Part shown: one piece after another, positions 14,062 through 60,375 of the stretch
Layout: every line of letters starts with the position of its first letter
Numbering within the stretch: position 1 is the first letter of the stretch
Origin: Polaromonas sp.
Lineage (GTDB): Bacteria > Pseudomonadota > Gammaproteobacteria > Burkholderiales > Burkholderiaceae_C
Direction of reading: 5' to 3'
Assembly: GCF_043778355.1 (NCBI RefSeq)
Contig: NZ_JAYWHI010000031.1
Coordinates: forward strand, 60,202 to 124,201
Length of the DNA: 64,000 bases
Position numbers and translations under genes: made by a program
The notes under the pieces: model-generated
What the model was told of the DNA's origin: nothing
What the model saw: only the letters and a program-made list of their open reading frames with translations
Databases searched by the model: none

Positions 14062-15372
14062 TCAGGCGGTTTGTGTGCCTCGGGTCAGACTCAAAGCGGC
14101 CAACGCCATGATTTTTGCGCTGTCCACCAGTTCCTGTATGCCCACATATTCGTCCGGCTGATGCGCCAGATCCAGGATGCCGGGACCGTAGGCAATACAG
14201 GCGTCAAGCTTACCGGTGCGCACAATGTGTTTCTGATCGTAAGTGCCGGGGCTGGAGATGTAGCTGGCCTCGCGGCCCAGCACGCGGGCAATCGCTCGGG
14301 CAGTCGCCAGCACCACCGGCGCATCCTTTGGCGTGGCGGTTGGCACAAAACTCATGATGTCCTTGATGCCGTAGTTGAAACCCGGCCGACTGCGCTTGAG
14401 CTCTTCGAGCATGGCGACGATTTCAGCTTTCACGGCCTCCAGGTTTTCTTCGGCAATGAAACGCCGATCCAGCACCGCGCGGCAGGAGTGCGCGACCACG
14501 GGTGAGGGCAGGTCGCCGGTTGGTCGGTTCAGGGCGTCCATGGCGAACCGTTGTTCGACCTGGCCACCATGCAGGCTGTTGATGTTAAGTGTGCTGACCC
14601 GAGCGCCGGAGGGCTCCACCGGCTCGGCGGTGTGGCGCTGCGACAGACGCGGCTGCAGTTGCGTTTCCAGCAGATGGATGAAAGCACTCATGTGGTTGAT
14701 GGCGCTGTCGCCCAGAAAAGGCATGGAGCCGTGGGCGATCCGCCCCAGGGTTTCAACCTCGCCCCACCAGACGCCGCGATGGCCCAGGCAGATGCGGTCC
14801 ACACCGAGCGGCTCGGGAATGATCACGTGATGCACACGTGGTTTGGAGAAGTAGCCACGCTCGGCCAGGTAACCGACGCCGGCAAACCCGCCCGACTCCT
14901 CATCCACCGTGCCGGAAATTTCCAGTGCACCGGCAAACGGCAGGCCCTCTTCCAAAATCGCCTCGCAGGCAATCACGCTGGAGGCCAGCCCGCCTTTCAT
15001 GTCGCAGGTGCCGCGTCCAAAGATCTTGCCGTCCCGGATGTCGGCGCCGAAGGGGTCGCTGCTCCAGCCGGAGCCTGCTTCGACCACATCGATGTGGCTG
15101 TTGAAATGCACACACTCGCCGCCGGGCTGGCCTTCATAACGCGCCACCACATTGATGCGTGGGTGCGAATCGCGGTCACCCGGCGCGCCAGTGGCGCGTA
15201 TGTATTCGACGGCAAAGCCGCGCCTGGCAAGCCGTTCACCAAGCAAGCGGGCACAGGCTTCGTAGGCGTCGCCGGGCGGATTCGTTGTAGGGATGCGCAC
15301 CAGGTCTTGCGTGAGGGCCACCACCTCATCGCGTTTGGACTCGATGCGTTTGAGCAGGCTGTCGTTGTTCAT
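14062..15372 (-). CDS. M20 family metallopeptidase (ArgE/DapE-like deacylase)
   Basis: HFNSHIDVV, GRGTCDMKGG, VDEESGG, IIPEP, AHQPDEY metal-binding motifs. Confidence 0.9.
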   Translation of the reverse strand: MNNDSLLKRIESKRDEVVALTQDLVRIPTTNPPGDAYEACARLLGERLARRGFAVEYIRATGAPGDRDSHPRINVVARYEGQPGGECVHFNSHIDVVEAGSGWSSDPFGADIRDGKIFGRGTCDMKGGLASSVIACEAILEEGLPFAGALEISGTVDEESGGFAGVGYLAERGYFSKPRVHHVIIPEPLGVDRICLGHRGVWWGEVETLGRIAHGSMPFLGDSAINHMSAFIHLLETQLQPRLSQRHTAEPVEPSGARVSTLNINSLHGGQVEQRFAMDALNRPTGDLPSPVVAHSCRAVLDRRFIAEENLEAVKAEIVAMLEELKRSRPGFNYGIKDIMSFVPTATPKDAPVVLATARAIARVLGREASYISSPGTYDQKHIVRTGKLDACIAYGPGILDLAHQPDEYVGIQELVDSAKIMALAALSLTRGTQTA

Positions 15373-15436
15373 GCAGTCAGTTTATGTGAACCGCGCTTCG
15401 CTGTCTCGCGGTCTCGGAACTCGTATTTTCAAGCCA

Positions 15437-15603
15437 GGGCCGCAGGTCCGGCTCTGCCGGCCCGCAGGCGCAGCGCCCCATCGGGTGGCAGCGACCACAC
15501 GCAGTGGGGAGCGTGGGGGTTGATGTTTTTTCGCAGGGTGACCCGAGAAAAAATGCGCCCCCTCGGGGGGCAGAGAGCTACACGAGGTGAGCGAACGTGG
15601 GGG
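15437..15603 (+). repeat. Tandem pair of CCCCCTCGGGGGGCAGCG...GTGGGGG palindromic repeats (intergenic)
   Basis: Units at about 15476-15519 and 15555-15603; same family as the copies inside the CDS at 35019-35173. Confidence 0.8.
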
Positions 15604-15605
15604 CT

Positions 15606-16727
15606 CTAACCCTGACGCCACGGCAACCCGCGAAACCGCCAGCCACCGCGCGTGCCGCGATGGGCTTCAGCGTCCGGGTCACCTTCAAAGCCCTCAAGGA
15701 TGTTGTAGGCCTCCAGCCCCAGTTCGGTGGCGCGTTTGGCCGCAGCAATCGAGCGCACCCCGCTTCTGCACAACATCACGGCCTTGCCGCCGGCAGGCAC
15801 GGCGGCCTGCAGGCCTTCGTCGAACTGCGGATTCATGGCCATGCCCGGCCACTGCTTCCAGGCCAGCGCCACCGCACCCGGCACAAAACCGACCCATTCG
15901 CGCTCGGCATCGCTGCGTACGTCAATCAGCACGGCCTGGCCGGCCTGCCACCACTGGCAGGCCAGTTCGGGCGACACATTGCCGGCATAGCCCTGGGCGG
16001 GTTGGACCTGCAGCAAACACGCACCGTCGGCATCCTGACGGCCACTGCCCAGGCCTGAGTTCAGATTCGCCGGCAGCGCCTCGTCGATACGCGCTGGCCG
16101 CGGCAGCTTGAGCTCGGCCATGGTGGCCACGAACTCCGCCAGGCTTTTGCCGGCAATCCGCGGATTGCCGGCCCTCTCCGCAGCGATCGTCGAATGACTC
16201 CGGCCCTGATAATCGTGTCCGGGCCAGACCACGGTGTGGTCTGGCAGTGTGAACAGCCGCTGCGTGATGCTGTGATACAGCGCCTCGGCGCTGCCGGACT
16301 GGAAATCGGTACGGCCACAACCCTTGATGAGCAAGGTGTCGCCGGTAAAAAGATGCTCGCGCCAAAGATAACTGACACTTCCGGCGGTGTGGCCCGGCGT
16401 ATGTATCACCGTGATCTGCTCGCCGCCCACCCGCAGCACGTCGCCCTCCTTGAGCTGACGTGCAGCGCTTGCGATGCCGCAAGCCTCAGGCGCCGCCGTT
16501 TGCGCCCCGGTGTGCTCGGCCAGTTGCCCGGCGCTGGTGATGTGGTCGGCATGGGCGTGGGTTTCAACCGTCCACCGCAGCTTGAGCCCATGGCCTCGAA
16601 GGACGGCGAGATCGCGCTCAAGTTGTTGATCCACCGGGTCGATGATGAGCGCCTCGTGTGTTGCTGGATCGAACAGCACATAGGTGTAGGTGCTGGAAGC
16701 AGGGTCGAAGAGTTGAAGCGGTTTCAT
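15606..16727 (-). CDS. Persulfide dioxygenase (ETHE1-like MBL fold) fused to C-terminal rhodanese
   Basis: ETHAHADH, TPGHT, FTGDTLL, GCGRTDFQ, WPGHDY, then rhodanese DVRS...MLCRSGVRS; start trimmed to ATG 16727. Confidence 0.88.
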   Translation of the reverse strand: MKPLQLFDPASSTYTYVLFDPATHEALIIDPVDQQLERDLAVLRGHGLKLRWTVETHAHADHITSAGQLAEHTGAQTAAPEACGIASAARQLKEGDVLRVGGEQITVIHTPGHTAGSVSYLWREHLFTGDTLLIKGCGRTDFQSGSAEALYHSITQRLFTLPDHTVVWPGHDYQGRSHSTIAAERAGNPRIAGKSLAEFVATMAELKLPRPARIDEALPANLNSGLGSGRQDADGACLLQVQPAQGYAGNVSPELACQWWQAGQAVLIDVRSDAEREWVGFVPGAVALAWKQWPGMAMNPQFDEGLQAAVPAGGKAVMLCRSGVRSIAAAKRATELGLEAYNILEGFEGDPDAEAHRGTRGGWRFRGLPWRQG

Positions 16728-16861
16728 GGCAATTCCGGGTTCGGGCAACGGACACTGACCATCGGCCAATGCATCAGCGCAGCGCCAAGTTTAGACCTGT
16801 GGCACGCGTTCAATCGCAGCGGCTGACCGAGCGCGCAGGTGCAATCACTGAAGCAACAAAT

Positions 16862-32378: not shown

Positions 32379-32443
32379 GAAGTCAAGCCAAATGCACCTC
32401 TAGCCCATGTCCCACATGGGTAATACGCTATTTATTTAGTAGC
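32379..32443 (-). repeat. ~65-bp dispersed repeat (TGCTAT..ATAGC family), copy 4
   Basis: Minus strand GCTACTAAATAAATAGCG..CCCATGTGGGACATGGGCTAGAGG..; overlaps the last codons and stop of the molybdoenzyme gene. Confidence 0.75.
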
Positions 32444-35400
32444 GTCCTGGCGCAGGCGAGCCACCGCAGCCGGCAGCGCGTCCCAGGCCGCACGCCCCGG
32501 CGCATACCGGCTGCGCATGTAGGCCGCCAACTCGGCGATTTGCGCATCACTGAGGCTGTGGCGAAACGCCGGCATGAACCCCACCTGTGCCGACACTGGC
32601 TCGCGGATGCCGTCCAGAATCACCCGCACCAGGTTGTCGGGCCGCGCACTGTGTAGCTTGCTGTTAAGCGCCAGCGGCACATTGGCGCCCAGCAGCGTCG
32701 GGCCTTCGCCGTCGTGGTGGCAGGAGGCGCAGGCGCCGGTAAACAGGCGCTGGCCGGGGCCCGGCAGGGCCAGGGTGGTTTGCTGCGCAGCGAGTACCGC
32801 CTGGCTGGCGCGCAAGGCACTGTAAGGTTCGGTCAGCGGCTGGTTGTACGAGGCCAGGTAGGTCGCCATGGCGCGGATGTCGGCGTCGGGCAAAGCAGCC
32901 AACTCCTTCACCACCGGCGCCATCGGTCCGGCGGCGATGCCGTGTTGTGGCGAATGGCCGGTACGCAGGTAGCTGTAGAGCTGTTCGCGGGTCCAGGGCA
33001 CCGGCGCACGCGACAGCGCGGTCAGCGCCGGCGCTTCCCAGCCATCGACCATCGCACCGCTTAAAAAGGCCTTGCCGCCACGTTCGGCGCCGACGGCATT
33101 GCGCGGCGTGTGGCAGGCGCCGCAGTGGCCCAGGCCGTTGACCAGGTAGGCGCCGCGGTTCCATTCGACGGTTTGCGTGACATCCGGCTGGTAGGGCGCG
33201 GCATCGTGAAAGAGTGCGTTCCAGCCGGCCATCAATGGCCGCACGCTGAACGGAAAGGCCAACTGTGTGGCCGGAACTTCTGAACGCACCGCTGGCTGCG
33301 CCATAAGGTAGGCATACAGCGCGGTCAGGTCCTCGTCACTGGTTTTGGCAAAGGCTGTGTAGGGAAAGGCCGGGTACAGATGGTGGCCGTCGCGCGAGAT
33401 GCCTTCGCGCATGGCGCGCTGGAAAGCACTGAAGGACCAGAGGCCGATACCGGTCTGGGCATCGGGGGTGATGTTGGTGGTCACTACCTTGCCGAAGGGC
33501 GTGTCCATGGCCAGACCACCCGTATTGGGCACACCGCCGGGGGCGGTGTGGCAAACCACGCAATCACCCGCAGCGGCGAGCTGGCGGCCGCGCTCGATGG
33601 TGGCAGCGGTGTAGATGGCCCCGCTGCTGGCGGCCACCGGCGCGATGGCCGGACGCCAGCCCAGCAGCGCGGTCGCGATGCCAAACACGCTGGCGAGGAC
33701 GGCGCCACCGCGCACCCAGGCTTTGCGCTTGCGTGGCCAGACTGCCGTTGTGGGTAGTGGGTTGTCGATGGGTTCAGGCGTCGACTGCAGACGCGCTGTC
33801 TCGCCGTCCGGCGCCGGGTTCAGCGCCGCGCGAATCACTTCGGGCGTGAACGGCGGCTGGCGGAAACGCACACCGGTTGCATCAAAAATCGCATTCGCAA
33901 TCGCTGCCGTGCCAGGCACCGAGGCCGACTCGCCAGCGCCCAAAGGCGGCTCGCCCGGCCGCGCCATGGTCACCACCTCGATCACAGGCACATCGCGGAA
34001 ATTGAGGATAGGGTAAGCGCCCCATTCAAGCGCAGCGACCGTGTTGTTCACCGGATTCAACGCCACCTGCTCGGTCAGCGCACGGCTGGTGGTTTGCACC
34101 ACGTTGCCGTGGATCTGATGCTGCACACCGGCCGGGTTGATCAGCGTGCCGGCGTCGTGACCGACCACGACGCGCCGCACATGGACTTCGCCAGTTTTAC
34201 GATTGACTTCCACGTCGGCGACCCAGGCGGCCCAGGCGGCGCCAAAACCCGGCCACTTGCTGTGCACATAACGCGCGTAGGCCACGCCCTGGCCTGTCAC
34301 GATGTCCGATGCGCCCTCCCCAGCCGCGTCACGATCCGGCGTCTGTTGCGGCTGGGTGTGTGCCTTCCAGCCGGCGCGCTCGGCGGTCGCGCGCACCAGC
34401 TCGGCGGCACGCGGCTCGCTGAGGTAACGCAGGCGGAACTCAACCGGATCGACACCGGCGGCGGTCGCGAGTTCGTCGATGTAGGACTCGTGCGCGAAGG
34501 AATTGGGCAGGGCCGAGACACCGCGCAGCCAGGACGCGCGCAGCATGGGCGCCATGTCGTTGACGCTGACACGCAGGTTGTCGTAATCGTAGGGCGGCCG
34601 CGCGCTGCGGTCACCCATCTCGTAGGCCTGCGCGACCGGTTCGATGGTGCGGGTCAGCAGCAACGCCAGCGTTGGCGAACCGTTGGAGGGGTAGGAGGTC
34701 TGGAAGTCATAGGCGGCGACCGAACCGTCGGCATTGAGGCCGCCGCGCACCTGCATCAGTTGCGCCGCGCCCTTGGGCTCCCAGGCGTGCTCCTGCTCGC
34801 GCGTGAGCTGCACCCGCACCGGCGCACCAACGGCGCGCGACAGCAGGGCGGCGTCAGCGGCCACGTCGTCGGCGCAATTGCGGCCATAACAACCCGCCGC
34901 TTCCATGCGGACGACGTCGATGGCTACGTCGGCCAGGCCCATCAGGCGCGACAGATCGGCGCGCAGCACATGCGGGTTTTGCGTGCCGGCCCAGACCGTG
35001 AGGTGAGGTCCCGCCGCCGGGCCGTTCCCAAGGCGGGATGCGGCCCCCTCGGGGGGCAGCGACCCACCCTCGGTGGGGGAGTGTGGGGGCACAGGCCGCC
35101 GCGAAGGGCCGCCCCGAGCAAGGCCAGCCCCCTCGGGGGGCAGCGACTCACACGCAGTGGGGGAGCGTGGGGGCCCTTCTTGCCAGTCGGCCAGCGCACA
35201 GGACGGGCCGATGGAGCCATGCATCTGGTAGGGCCAGACATAGTTGCGCGCCAAGGCCTGCGCGGCGCCGGCAATCGCCGCGTCCACATCGCCTTCATCA
35301 ACCAGCCTTCGCTGGGTGGACGGGTTGCTCTTGATCGCCTGTTCGAGGTCGTCGAGCTTCTGCAAACCCGGCCAGGCTTTCCAGGCCACCTTGAGGTCGC

Positions 35401-36247
35401 GCAGGGCCTGCTCGGCAAATTCCTCGCGTTCGGCAACGATGCCGACAAAATCGCGGATCACCACCACCGCGCGGATACCAGGAATATGCGCGATCGACGA
35501 TTCATCGACCGCCTGCAAGGTGTTGCCGATGAAGTCGCCATGGTCCGCGCCGGCATAAGGCGGTCGCACCACACGGCCATGCAGCATGCCGGGCACCCGC
35601 ATGTCATGCACAAAAGTCAGCGCACCGGTGGCCTTGGCGGGAATGTCGACACGCAGCTGGGCGGTGCCGACGATGCGATAGTCTTCGGGCGCCTTGAGTA
35701 AGGTGTCCGGAGCCAATGTCAACTCGACATGCTGGCCGCTGAGCAGCGCGCCATAGGCCAGCGACCGGCCAGCGTTATCGCTGATCACGCCTTCGCGTAC
35801 ACCCAGGGTGGTGAGGTCAGCCGCCAACTCTGCGGCGGCACGGGCCAGCAGCCAGGCACGCGCCTGCGCTGCGGCGGCGCGCAGCGGCGCCGAATGAATC
35901 TGTATCGAGGTGCTGGCTATCGTGGCGCCCTGGTTCGGCACACTGGCCGTGTCGCCCAGCACCATGTGGACTTGATGGAGCGCCACGTCGAGTTCTTCCG
36001 CCACGATCTGGCTAAGGGCCGTGCGTATGCCGGTGCCCAGATCGACATGGCCGTTCAGGGCCGTCACCCTACCGTCATCCCAGACCGCGAGCAGAATCTC
36101 CACGCCTTCGCGCGGGTTGGCGGTAACCAGCGGCGGTTGCCCAGGCGCCGCCGGCGGGGCTGGTGGTGGCGCACGCGTGACCAGCAGCACGCCGGACGCC
36201 GCGTGAAACCCGGCGCGTGTCAGCGACGTAACGGCACGGCGCGTCAT
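32432..36247 (-). CDS. Molybdopterin (MCD) oxidoreductase large subunit fused to tri-haem cytochrome c; NicB-like nicotinate dehydrogenase
   Basis: HVDLGTG, GCYG, SWLRG, LGAGES motifs; three CxxCH (CVVCH, CGACH, CASCH); carries a ~55-aa repeat-derived insertion. Confidence 0.85.
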   Translation of the reverse strand: MTRRAVTSLTRAGFHAASGVLLVTRAPPPAPPAAPGQPPLVTANPREGVEILLAVWDDGRVTALNGHVDLGTGIRTALSQIVAEELDVALHQVHMVLGDTASVPNQGATIASTSIQIHSAPLRAAAAQARAWLLARAAAELAADLTTLGVREGVISDNAGRSLAYGALLSGQHVELTLAPDTLLKAPEDYRIVGTAQLRVDIPAKATGALTFVHDMRVPGMLHGRVVRPPYAGADHGDFIGNTLQAVDESSIAHIPGIRAVVVIRDFVGIVAEREEFAEQALRDLKVAWKAWPGLQKLDDLEQAIKSNPSTQRRLVDEGDVDAAIAGAAQALARNYVWPYQMHGSIGPSCALADWQEGPPRSPTACESLPPEGAGLARGGPSRRPVPPHSPTEGGSLPPEGAASRLGNGPAAGPHLTVWAGTQNPHVLRADLSRLMGLADVAIDVVRMEAAGCYGRNCADDVAADAALLSRAVGAPVRVQLTREQEHAWEPKGAAQLMQVRGGLNADGSVAAYDFQTSYPSNGSPTLALLLTRTIEPVAQAYEMGDRSARPPYDYDNLRVSVNDMAPMLRASWLRGVSALPNSFAHESYIDELATAAGVDPVEFRLRYLSEPRAAELVRATAERAGWKAHTQPQQTPDRDAAGEGASDIVTGQGVAYARYVHSKWPGFGAAWAAWVADVEVNRKTGEVHVRRVVVGHDAGTLINPAGVQHQIHGNVVQTTSRALTEQVALNPVNNTVAALEWGAYPILNFRDVPVIEVVTMARPGEPPLGAGESASVPGTAAIANAIFDATGVRFRQPPFTPEVIRAALNPAPDGETARLQSTPEPIDNPLPTTAVWPRKRKAWVRGGAVLASVFGIATALLGWRPAIAPVAASSGAIYTAATIERGRQLAAAGDCVVCHTAPGGVPNTGGLAMDTPFGKVVTTNITPDAQTGIGLWSFSAFQRAMREGISRDGHHLYPAFPYTAFAKTSDEDLTALYAYLMAQPAVRSEVPATQLAFPFSVRPLMAGWNALFHDAAPYQPDVTQTVEWNRGAYLVNGLGHCGACHTPRNAVGAERGGKAFLSGAMVDGWEAPALTALSRAPVPWTREQLYSYLRTGHSPQHGIAAGPMAPVVKELAALPDADIRAMATYLASYNQPLTEPYSALRASQAVLAAQQTTLALPGPGQRLFTGACASCHHDGEGPTLLGANVPLALNSKLHSARPDNLVRVILDGIREPVSAQVGFMPAFRHSLSDAQIAELAAYMRSRYAPGRAAWDALPAAVARLRQDATK
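35019..35173 (+). repeat. Tandem CCCCCTCGGGGGGCAGCG..GTGGGGG repeats inserted in-frame in the CDS
   Basis: Units at about 35019-35089 and 35106-35173 encode two PPxSP...SLPPEGA peptides on the minus strand. Confidence 0.85.
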
Positions 36248-36735
36248 GCGTCAGCGCCGCCTGCGCTGCGCATCAATTCGGCGGCGCGCCGGACCGCCTT
36301 GAGGATTTCCAGATGGGTGCCGCAGCGGCAGAGGTTGCCGGACAGCTCGCGCCGTATTTCTTCATCCGTTGGATCAGGATTTCGCGCCAGCAGCGCTGCC
36401 GTCATCACCATCATGCCGCTCATGCAGTAGCCACATTGCGCCGCCTGTTCGTCGATGAAAGCCTGCTGCACCGGATGCAGGCGGTCCGCCCCACCCAGCC
36501 CTTCGAGCGTGGTGATGACCCGGCCGCCAGCGTGGACCGCCGGGATCACGCAGGACCTCGCCGCCACACCATCGACCAGCACGGTGCAGGCCCCGCATTC
36601 ACCGAGGCCGCAGCCGTACTTGGGGCTGTTCAGGCACAGGTCGTTGCGCAGCACGGTCAGCAGGCTGGTCTGTTGTGACACAGTCATGTCCCGCAACACG
36701 CCGTTGACGCTGAGAAGGACAGGCTGCAAGGTCAT
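36244..36735 (-). CDS. [2Fe-2S] subunit of the molybdoenzyme (NicA/CoxS-like)
   Basis: KYGCGLGECGACTV and QCGYC..GNLCRCG cysteine motifs; overlaps the large subunit start. Confidence 0.92.
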   Translation of the reverse strand: MTLQPVLLSVNGVLRDMTVSQQTSLLTVLRNDLCLNSPKYGCGLGECGACTVLVDGVAARSCVIPAVHAGGRVITTLEGLGGADRLHPVQQAFIDEQAAQCGYCMSGMMVMTAALLARNPDPTDEEIRRELSGNLCRCGTHLEILKAVRRAAELMRSAGGADA

Positions 36736-59637: not shown

Positions 59638-60375
59638 TCAAAAAGGCAAGGTCTGCCCGCGGTAGTCCACAAGAGCCCCGGTTGACGCCGGCGCCAGACC
59701 GGCAAGCACCGCCAGCAAATCGCCGGCAGCTTCCTGCGGCGGTCGCACGGTGAGCCCGGTTTTGGCGAAGGGCTGGCTCAGCGGCGTGTCCACCGTGCCG
59801 GGATGCAGCGCCACACAAATGCTTTCCCGGTTGCTGCGCGTGAGCTCGATGGCCGCGGTCTTGACCAGCTGGTTCAGCGCCGCCTTCGATGCGCGGTAGC
59901 CATACCAGCCGCCCAGCGCGTTGTCGCCGATGCTGCCAACCCGTGCCGACACAAAGCCGGCCACGCAGCGCCCCTGCCGCGGCAGCAGCGGGAAGAAATG
60001 TTTGATCAGAAGCGCCGGTCCGACCGTGTTGACCAAAAAAACATGTTGCAGGTAAGCGGCATCAAGGTGACGCCAACCGCGTTCAGGCTGACCCTGCTGC
60101 CCGTGCAGGAAACCGGTCGCAACCAGCAGCAGGCGCAAAGCGAGCCCGGACTCGGCGCAGAGGCCGGCGACGGCCTGGGCGCCAGCGGCGATGCTGCTCT
60201 CGTCTGCGTAGTCGAGGTGGATCTCGCTCGCGCGCCCCAGGCTCACAACCTGGTCGTAACGCCCCGCGTGCTGCAGTTGCGCCACCAAAGCCGCGCCCAG
60301 CCCGCCGCCGGCGCCCACCACCACGGCCAGCCCTGATCGGCCCGGCCCGTCGCTTGTGGCGGGGCTGCCGCTCAC
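59638..60375 (-). CDS. SDR oxidoreductase, C-factor (CsgA)-like
   Basis: GAGGGLG, SARVGSIGDNALGGWYGYRASKAALN, ALHPGTVDT; GTG start at 60375 overlaps the dbpA stop (GTGA). Confidence 0.85.
   Translation of the reverse strand: MSGSPATSDGPGRSGLAVVVGAGGGLGAALVAQLQHAGRYDQVVSLGRASEIHLDYADESSIAAGAQAVAGLCAESGLALRLLLVATGFLHGQQGQPERGWRHLDAAYLQHVFLVNTVGPALLIKHFFPLLPRQGRCVAGFVSARVGSIGDNALGGWYGYRASKAALNQLVKTAAIELTRSNRESICVALHPGTVDTPLSQPFAKTGLTVRPPQEAAGDLLAVLAGLAPASTGALVDYRGQTLPF

Follow-up and report, generated by a model that had tools for sequence, protein, structure and literature searches.

This stretch of Polaromonas sp. DNA (positions 60,202 to 124,201 of contig NZ_JAYWHI010000031.1, assembly GCF_043778355.1; 64,000 nucleotides, referred to here in full as the window) raises the question of how the large-subunit gene of a molybdenum hydroxylase came to contain, in frame and within a single loop of its product, two copies of a palindromic DNA repeat that also lies between genes. 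An original prediction, made from the sequence alone, had described such a repeat peptide in this NicB-like gene at 35010-35180, with the reading frame kept over 1271 codons. The peptide is present exactly as given there, the interval was right within a few bases (the precise loop is 35003-35179), and the list of open reading frames (ORFs) with their translations confirmed that the frame is open throughout. The evidence presented below makes it probable that the insert is repeat DNA, resembling repetitive extragenic palindromic (REP) elements, that is tolerated as an extension of a permissive beta-turn, and that it combines an inherited old copy with a recent second one.

Two repeat units in one loop

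The loop peptide of the window gene (...SCALADWQ-EGPPRSPTACESLPPEGAGLARGGPSRRPVPPHSPTEGGSLPPEGAASRLGNGPAAGPH-LTVWAGTQNPH) represents a net gain of 168 nt (56 aa) over the 3-residue loop of orthologues in which the site is empty. It contains two 48-nt units (35043-35090 and 35127-35174) with 90% identity at a spacing of 84 nt, and each belongs to a longer repeat unit composed of a left hairpin module and a core (Table 1). In unit 2, the left module has the stem TCCCGCC/GGCGGGA and the core reads CCCCCTCGGGGGG CAGCG CCCACC-CTC-GGTGGG AGTGTGGGGG; unit 1 directly adjoins the terminal GTGGGGG of unit 2. For both units the frame in use is the antisense one (..SLPPEGA..), one of two that the repeat family uses inside genes, giving PPHSPTEGGSLPPEGAASRLGNGPAA for unit 2 and PPRSPTACESLPPEGAGLARGGPSRRPV for unit 1, and the predicted tryptic peptides across the insert are SPTACESLPPEGAGLAR and LGNGPAAGPHLTVWAGTQNPHVLR.

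Two public runs that are independent of each other, X1 (from a biofilm metagenome) and X2 (which carries a single-organism label and has ~470-800x depth), yielded contigs without any difference over both units. Since the two runs reproduce both units, the insert in the window gene is not an assembly artefact, and assembly error was rejected on these grounds. An intron was likewise rejected, as neither an intron nor any other RNA family in Rfam matched, and an intein was rejected on insert length and junction residues, as 57 aa are too short and the junctions (Q/EG..., ...PH/L) lack the Cys/Ser/Thr and His-Asn residues required for splicing. Beyond the oddity of the sequence, nothing speaks for an artefact or for intron- or intein-like removal after transcription or translation, and orthologous single units occur in frame in many lineages, so that we consider this whole class of explanations exceedingly improbable.

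The best solved relative of the host protein, the membrane aldehyde dehydrogenase large subunit 8gy3_C, aligns in two blocks that leave ~56 surplus residues in the window protein. Structure alignment was performed with the insert swapped for the 3-residue loop of the nearest empty orthologue; under these conditions no gap remained across the turn with PaoC (5g5g_C, EPHASMAVWDGNKLTLWTSNQ) or aldehyde oxidase (5y6q_C), and nicotinate dehydrogenase (3hrd_A) had one residue more. By sequence alignment, the insertion site corresponds to a 3-4 residue turn between two strands in the solved homologues, and the claim that only a few residues normally separate SCALADWQ from LTVWAGTQNPH holds for these structures and for the nearest orthologues alike (3-4 residues). 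The copies sit in this beta-hairpin turn of the molybdenum-binding subunit, and the next strand bears the conserved GTQNPH motif, ending in what we take to be the conserved (S/G)TQ glutamine of the molybdenum site in the xanthine-oxidase family. An AlphaFold 2 (AF2) model of residues 1-800, built with 51 close homologues, places residues 360-411 in a low-confidence coil between strands 350-356 and 415-420, although with a mean predicted local distance difference test (pLDDT) score of 56 and a predicted template modelling score of 0.39 it was too poor for a fold search. The insert also splits domain models (the Pfam MoCoBD_1 match begins only at profile position 57, residue 414, past the insert) and ORF lengths differ between strains, which calls for caution in annotation.

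A repeat family between and within genes

The core CCCCCTCGGGGGGCAGCGA, allowing up to 3 mismatches, occurs four times in the window (at 15476, 15558, 35044 and 35128), compared to 0.05 occurrences expected from shuffles, and a looser scan of the 64-kb window detected no copies beyond those four. The two that lie outside the molybdoenzyme gene form the intergenic repeat that had been reported at 15437-15603; its extent is 15428-15604, and it can be aligned with the intragenic doublet. Its two copies, A and B, are arranged head to tail between an M20 peptidase gene (14062-15372, minus strand) and an MBL-rhodanese gene (15606-16769, minus strand). Together they occupy nearly all of the 233-nt spacer up to the M20 peptidase gene start, and copy B ends 2 nt from the stop codon (TAG, minus strand) of the MBL-rhodanese gene.

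When one genome per species was scanned with the pattern CCCCCTCGGGGGGCAG-N20-25-GTGGGGG, at least 120 loci and at least 132 copies were returned. Among the matches listed are Polaromonas, Rhodoferax, Hydrogenophaga, Ramlibacter, Variovorax, Acidovorax, Ottowia, Xenophilus and Curvibacter, as well as some Alcaligenaceae (Achromobacter and Pigmentiphaga), and the family is common and widespread in Comamonadaceae. Perfect copies at L012, L014 and L062 come from bins labelled Bordetella parapertussis, Synechococcus or Kapabacteria, which are probably mis-binned Comamonadaceae contigs and not true hosts. No Rfam family matched the element (rnk_pseudo, at 20.5 bits where the gathering score is 55, matches by chance), and we found no report in the literature of the core sequence in a bacterial context or of such a family in Comamonadaceae.

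A unit is ~84 nt long (range ~84-110 nt) and contains three hairpins. The left hairpin has a covarying stem and a conserved loop (GGGCCGCCCCAAG), and its module comes in two variants, type 1 of ~30-39 nt and type 2 of ~50 nt. The middle hairpin, CCCCC-TCG-GGGGG, is followed by the linker CAGCG, and the third part is a variable hairpin closed by a GNA triloop and followed by the end AGCGTGGGGG, with a weak AT-rich consensus beyond GTGGGGG. A GNA-triloop hairpin of the GCGAAGC type fits a single-stranded DNA hairpin, as in the d(GCGAAGC) mini-hairpins. Folding energies of single copies were no better than those of shuffles in this G+C-rich DNA, with the exception of intergenic copy B (z = -3.5 for the DNA fold), and support for the hairpin structure comes from covariation instead. 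In the variable hairpin, compensatory changes were found at pair 22-33 (C-G in 21 copies, T-A in 20), pair 21-34 (G-C in 31, C-G in 11, T-A in 6) and pair 25-31 (A-T in 23, G-C in 18), while pairs 24-32 and 26-30 are fixed as C-G; the left stem covaries as well.

Neighbouring copies lie head to tail in the window doublets and at L004, L012, L015, L016, L042, L076 and L077. Multi-copy loci have one orientation in 25 cases and mixed orientations in 10, with close inverted pairs only at L014 (92 nt) and L084 (238 nt). Ottowia arrays run head to tail at ~81-87 nt spacing, with up to 4 consecutive units at L016 and 3 at L076, the latter within a long open frame whose status as a host is putative.

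Most of the 132 sampled copies (~85%) have no coding-like flanks in one frame and are mainly extragenic, and ~15% of the at least 132 lie in frame inside real proteins. Calling frames with strict thresholds on third-position G+C content (GC3) was too noisy, and spanning-ORF and Pfam tests were used instead. For 26 copies the surrounding ORF is long and its GC3 is coding-like to either side, and 20 of these were checked by Pfam; for 18-20 of the 20 spanning ORFs, Pfam domains flank the copy on both sides or straddle it. The hosts include a GspE-type ATPase, methylcrotonyl-CoA carboxylase alpha, PutA, RadA, a topoisomerase, FemAB_like proteins (two genera), APH (two), GlnD, ValRS, FdsA-like proteins (two), a radical-SAM protein, threonine synthase, CobQ, PGI and an AMP-binding enzyme, with L109 (M20 peptidase) and L020 (UvrA-like) less certain; in gcvT (L116:303-1601), the copy is in frame at ~residue 139, within the GCV_T domain. 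Given that the family is also intergenic, occurs in multiple genera and is present in both orientations inside unrelated proteins, the insert in the molybdoenzyme is repeat DNA rather than ancestral protein sequence.

The validated genic copies use only two of the six frames, either the sense frame APSGGS..SVGA or the antisense frame APTL..SLPPEGA..ALGRPGG. Stop codons are absent from 54-90% of copies in all six frames and from 54-88% in the four unused ones, with the unused sense frame RPLGGQR.. open in 88%; the unused frames encode Arg- or Cys-rich peptides. As the unused frames are mostly stop-free, stop codons do not explain the restriction, which seems instead to be due to selection on the peptide. 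A family-wide, frame-restricted colonization of housekeeping genes in Comamonadaceae is apparently new, as we found no prior description, and the insertions amount to a natural map of loops where conserved proteins tolerate extra residues.

Two protein searches with the insert peptide were of limited use. The 57-aa insert gave 30 hits among protein representatives, mostly 40-200 aa long and of no use for counting host families, the short ones probably being ORFs called over intergenic arrays; in a 5.8-billion protein index, 11 candidates shared words with the peptide and none scored, but a low-complexity query is unsuited to this search and absence is not implied.

Filled, empty and decayed alleles of the loop

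The site was surveyed in the 120 best homologues of the host protein, the names given being Polaromonas with the exception of one Ramlibacter and two designated only 'Pseudomonadota'. The length of the loop varies among these orthologues. In the closest ones (P0004-P0009), which are 93-94% identical outside it, the site is empty (DWQ-GES-LTVW), and the alignment proposed in the original prediction for defining such a site revealed no equally long loop in orthologues that lack the repeat. A single unit of 29 extra residues (..PPRSPTSCGSLPPEGAASRLGSGPAA..) is present exactly at the window site in ~18 of the 120, scattered over no fewer than 12 positions of a neighbour-joining tree and down to 71% identity; two units are present in the window gene, and unit 1 is missing from all of these 120. 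No one-unit allele was seen among near-identical sequences in the metagenome contigs. In runs X3 and X4, contigs at least 90% similar to the window jump from ~35000 to ~35182 with 13-37 unrelated bases between, and related strains with empty or short loops occur together in the same samples.

At the DNA level, ten filled alleles were compared with several empty ones. All ten share an extra A in GGGAGCGG, the left stem TCCCGCC/GGCGGGA and the spacer, a combination of states missing from the most similar copies at other loci, where the extra A is found only in L016. Unit 2 of the window shares the diagnostic stem, spacer and extra A with L121, L122 and L201-L207, and is an old copy, orthologous to the single unit of the ~18 homologues. 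Because all filled alleles share diagnostic states that similar copies elsewhere lack, a single ancient insertion is the most economical reading of these sequences. The left module of unit 1, on the other hand, belongs to a different, widespread subfamily and is 94% identical to a copy in L109. The X2 unitig ends within unit 1 (35117-35146) and unit 2 lies in an unbranched unitig; the summed depth of X2 contigs at least 90% similar to unit 1 is ~25x that of a single copy, and the unit 2 variant is unique in the genome behind this run. The differing left module, the unitig break and the ~25x depth of similar contigs imply that unit 1 is a young, separate insertion from a subfamily abundant in the genome. 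The doublet had been predicted to be a tandem; two head-to-tail units are indeed present, but the difference between their left modules rules out simple tandem duplication, and the doublet is better described as an old unit plus an independent young copy.

Later changes at the site, comprising deletions, trimming and decay, are all in frame. One clade of empty sites keeps the left flanking triplet (GES) and another the right (EHR), P0030 retains a 15-aa remnant, and in L208/P0066 the insert is unchanged in length with its sequence decayed by substitutions. In a more distant clade, L126 and L133 carry the 3' 36 nt of the element in the same loop in opposite orientation, with 35/36 positions matching. 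Considering the old unit, unit 1 and this inverted remnant, the loop has been struck by the element at least three times. The remnant in L126 lies between GPSCALA and RVWAGSQ (GGCAGCGACCCACACGCAGTGGGGAAGCGTGGGGGC, translated GGSDPHAVGKRGG), and the L133 version is decayed. Loops of 20 residues with unrelated sequence occupy the site in L139 and L142 (EESKESKGSDGERPAGTTATR, DGSEALEMPAAGPATGTTATR) and may reflect either a further old insertion or simple growth of the loop. With alleles of this one gene that are filled, empty, trimmed, decayed or doubly filled, it should be feasible to study directly how repeat DNA turns into protein.

Recurrent occupation of one site was also observed in the FemAB_like gene, where the element follows the same codons (..HTVQFHW-x-N-x APT..) in Hydrogenophaga, Polaromonas, Acidovorax and a fourth genus (L015:4308-5819, L069:5840-7381, L071:1-150 and L115:6662-7921). 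The variants differ, with type-1 or type-2 left modules and different variable hairpins, and L015 has two tandem units, which points either to a target that is hit repeatedly or to turnover at one fixed position.

It is conceivable that the molybdoenzyme loop has such a history throughout, that is, repeated independent insertions of one subfamily at a preferred target, possibly with seamless excision. The interleaving of filled and empty alleles at no fewer than 12 places on the tree, the later strikes by unit 1 and by the inverted element in L126/L133, the different variants at one FemAB_like codon in four genera, the weak AT-rich consensus after GTGGGGG and homoplasies inside the insert would all fit. 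However, the diagnostic stem, spacer and extra A are common to 10/10 sequenced filled alleles and not combined in similar copies elsewhere, the unit 2 variant has no second copy in the X2 genome, and empty sites of different clades keep different flanking triplets, as separate deletions would leave. We therefore regard this history as unlikely, while noting that it is compatible with a tolerated repeat insertion.

A further possibility is that the host gene is a recently inactivated pseudogene whose frame has stayed intact by chance. Stops are rare in G+C-rich DNA, as the open frames of the element itself illustrate, the second unit is young, and enzyme activity is a prediction from sequence. 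Yet the gene has 1271 open codons, its three CxxCH haem motifs and its GTQNPH and GAGES motifs are all intact, and its operon partner is intact. The ratio of nonsynonymous to synonymous divergence (dN/dS) was calculated against nine orthologues and lies mostly at 0.07-0.14, with 0.21 for the most distant of them; for the five closest it is 0.07-0.13, at a synonymous divergence (dS) of 0.58-1.3. This indicates strong purifying selection and hence argues that the gene is no pseudogene; moreover, alleles with one unit have lasted in many lineages and are equally constrained there, and the use of only two frames by genic copies points to selection on translated products. Inactivation, which the original prediction had named as a way to refute it, is thus very unlikely.

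The small-subunit gene lies ahead of the large-subunit gene, whose start its end overlaps by 4 nt, and the pair is also present in the orthologous loci L201-L208. Branched-chain-type ABC transporter genes lie upstream, and the remaining genes nearby encode a CoA-transferase, an acyl-CoA dehydrogenase and a LysR regulator; none of nicC, nicX, nicD, nicE or nicF is among the genes near the host gene.

Table 1. Positions of the repeat units and of the host genes within the window
Feature	Position	Strand	Description
Enlarged loop	35003-35179	-	59 codons EGPPRS...AAGPH, flanked by GPSCALADWQ and LTVWAGTQNPH
Unit 2, old copy	35009-35089	+	Left hairpin module 35009-35043, core 35044-35089
Unit 1, young extra copy	35090-35173	+	Left module 35090-35127 (CACAGGCCGCCGCGAAGGGCCGCCCCGAGCAAGGCCAG), core 35128-35173
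Host gene	32432-36247	-	Large subunit, two-component molybdenum hydroxylase, 1271 aa; Pfam MoCoBD_2, MoCoBD_1 and three C-terminal cytochrome c domains
[2Fe-2S] small subunit gene	36244-36735	-	NicA/IorA-like; Pfam Fer2_2 and Fer2
Intergenic copy A	15428-15520	+	Longer type-2 left module (..CCGGCTCTGCCGGCCCGCAGGCGCAGCG), core 15476-15519
Intergenic copy B	15526-15604	+	Type-1 left module TTTTTTCG..CGAGAAAAAA, core 15558-15603

Conservation of the old unit and comparison with known systems

The explanation that we favor, repeat DNA tolerated in a permissive turn, would operate as follows. The element would spread as selfish or repeat DNA, and a copy landing in a gene would persist only if it falls in a permissive surface loop and in one of the two frames yielding flexible, non-basic peptides rich in Pro, Gly, Ser and Ala. 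The host enzyme would tolerate the enlarged loop without needing it. Many orthologues have inherited the old unit, others have lost it, shortened it or let it decay, and the second unit was added recently, right behind the terminal GTGGGGG of the resident copy, an arrangement known from the head-to-tail arrays elsewhere. A putative mobilizing enzyme might act by recognizing single-strand hairpins, in the manner of REP/RAYT or IS200/IS605 systems.

Several observations weigh against this explanation. Above all, the old insert does not behave as neutral sequence would, differing by 0-10% per site between lineages with 30-48% divergence at flanking third positions, and variable third positions number 9/26 in the insert and 99/120 in the flank (Fisher p = 3e-6). 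In addition, no transposase of the RAYT or any other type was found in the sampled flanks, no target-site duplication was found in filled versus empty orthologous sites, there are no terminal inverted repeats over the whole unit (7-of-8 complementary ends, CCCCCTCG / CGTGGGGG, exist only on the 45-nt core), and no RAYT motif (HUH ... YxxxNP) was detected in all fetched loci and the window, although ~1.2 Mb of flanks cannot exclude a single-copy RAYT; the ORFs between inverted pairs are ilvC, soxA-like and gcvT. Mobility is accordingly something that we infer from distribution, polymorphism and the young unit. Finally, translation of the insert is predicted from the DNA reading frame, activity of the enzyme in this strain is predicted from sequence, and a surface position of the loop is likewise a prediction, the AF2 model having the low mean pLDDT given above.

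The conservation of the old insert was characterized by divergence comparisons of the insert, the downstream flank and one eight-sequence set. Pairwise divergence by codon position is 0.044, 0.071 and 0.138 in the insert, against ~0.41 at flank third positions. Recombination with hitch-hiking is an unlikely cause, because divergence resumes in the first codon on either side of the 78-nt insert. Unrelated copies in other genera are 85-92% identical to the old insert, which implies that the whole family is held constant in sequence. Candidate causes are selection on a DNA/RNA structure or binding site, selection on the peptide, and ectopic conversion confined to the element; homoplasies within the old insert hint at some exchange. 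What maintains such repeats is a question that the nucleotide-level conservation of an old intragenic copy raises directly.

One answer would be exaptation, in which the old unit is selected either as a peptide, serving as a flexible arm near the active-site strand or at a subunit contact, or as a structured DNA/RNA site within the coding region that binds a protein, pauses translation or affects mRNA stability. The 78-nt insert is indeed an island of conservation amid flanks that diverge from the first codon, its third positions are ~3x more conserved than those of the flank, it has been retained over a dS of ~0.6-1.3, and the family core is invariant across genera. On the other hand, most orthologues, including the closest at 94% identity, lack the insert, at least two different in-frame deletions, the trimming in P0030 and the decay in P0066/L208 have removed or eroded it, and solved homologues function with a 3-4 residue turn. 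Moreover, unrelated copies are equally conserved, so that conservation may be family-wide, for example through ectopic conversion, and not specific to this locus. We consider exaptation a doubtful account of the locus. A more far-reaching proposal, to which we attach similarly little weight, is that of a site-specific hairpin element that inserts and excises seamlessly with its own recognition protein, its resident intragenic copies being maintained by a DNA/RNA function or by element-directed conversion. If true, this would represent a conserved, genus-spanning Comamonadaceae system that repeatedly writes the same two peptides into permissive loops of housekeeping enzymes.

Returning to tolerated repeat DNA as the preferred reading, the locus can be compared with known systems. 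As originally described, the host resembles NicB of Pseudomonas putida, the nicotinate hydroxylase large subunit, in its molybdopterin domains, its three cytochrome c domains and the [2Fe-2S] small-subunit gene ahead of it; the resemblance ends with this architecture, as the neighbours of the Polaromonas gene are not nic genes. Intragenic MITEs, which are miniature transposable elements with inverted repeats, and other small repeats (ERIC, BOX, the Nezha and Anabaena MITEs, Correia; PMC10969869) are likewise small and non-autonomous, with occasional in-frame ORF fusions. Unlike MITEs, the Comamonadaceae element has no terminal inverted repeats across the unit, no target-site duplication and no known parent insertion sequence, and its in-frame frequency and frame restriction far exceed the occasional cases reported for such families.

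The REP, BIME and REPIN elements with their RAYT transposases (Nunvar et al. 2010, PMC2817692) show a resemblance in form. As with REP, the copies are abundant G+C-rich imperfect palindromes with stems kept by compensatory changes, mostly extragenic, clustered, and conserved across related genera. In contrast with these elements, arrays are mainly head to tail and not alternating inverted pairs, and a sizeable share of copies is intragenic and in frame. GTGG was seen only as part of the 3' end AGCGTGGGGG, and in front of none of the three hairpins is there a GT[AG]G; the inverted pairs flank ordinary genes (ilvC, soxA and gcvT), and no RAYT gene was found in the ~1.2 Mb of flanks.

In behavior, there is a parallel with Rickettsia palindromic elements (RPEs; Ogata et al. 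2000 Science 290:347; 2002 Genome Res 12:808; summary in PMC10969869), and the comparison already drawn in the original prediction gains strength from ~20 conserved proteins with in-frame copies and from the two preferred frames. A 2024 review treats RPEs as the extreme case, with the same in other prokaryotes only conjectured (PMC10969869). Both are short hairpin-forming repeats that lie between genes and in frame inside many unrelated conserved genes, both have a preferred frame giving a conserved peptide, and insertions of both are polymorphic between related lineages; by analogy, the Comamonadaceae host proteins would also remain functional. Several differences set the two apart. RPE hosts are reduced intracellular alphaproteobacteria, whereas the hosts here are free-living, high-G+C Comamonadaceae with large genomes; the Comamonadaceae units are ~84-110 nt with three hairpins, use both orientations with one frame each, form head-to-tail arrays, including within a gene, and have a resident copy strongly conserved at the nucleotide level. 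We liken the family to RPEs by behavior, not by sequence, and do not assign it to them by descent. With this qualification, protein-coding palindromes, presented as a peculiarity of Rickettsia, appear to be matched by an apparently undescribed family in free-living betaproteobacteria with large genomes.

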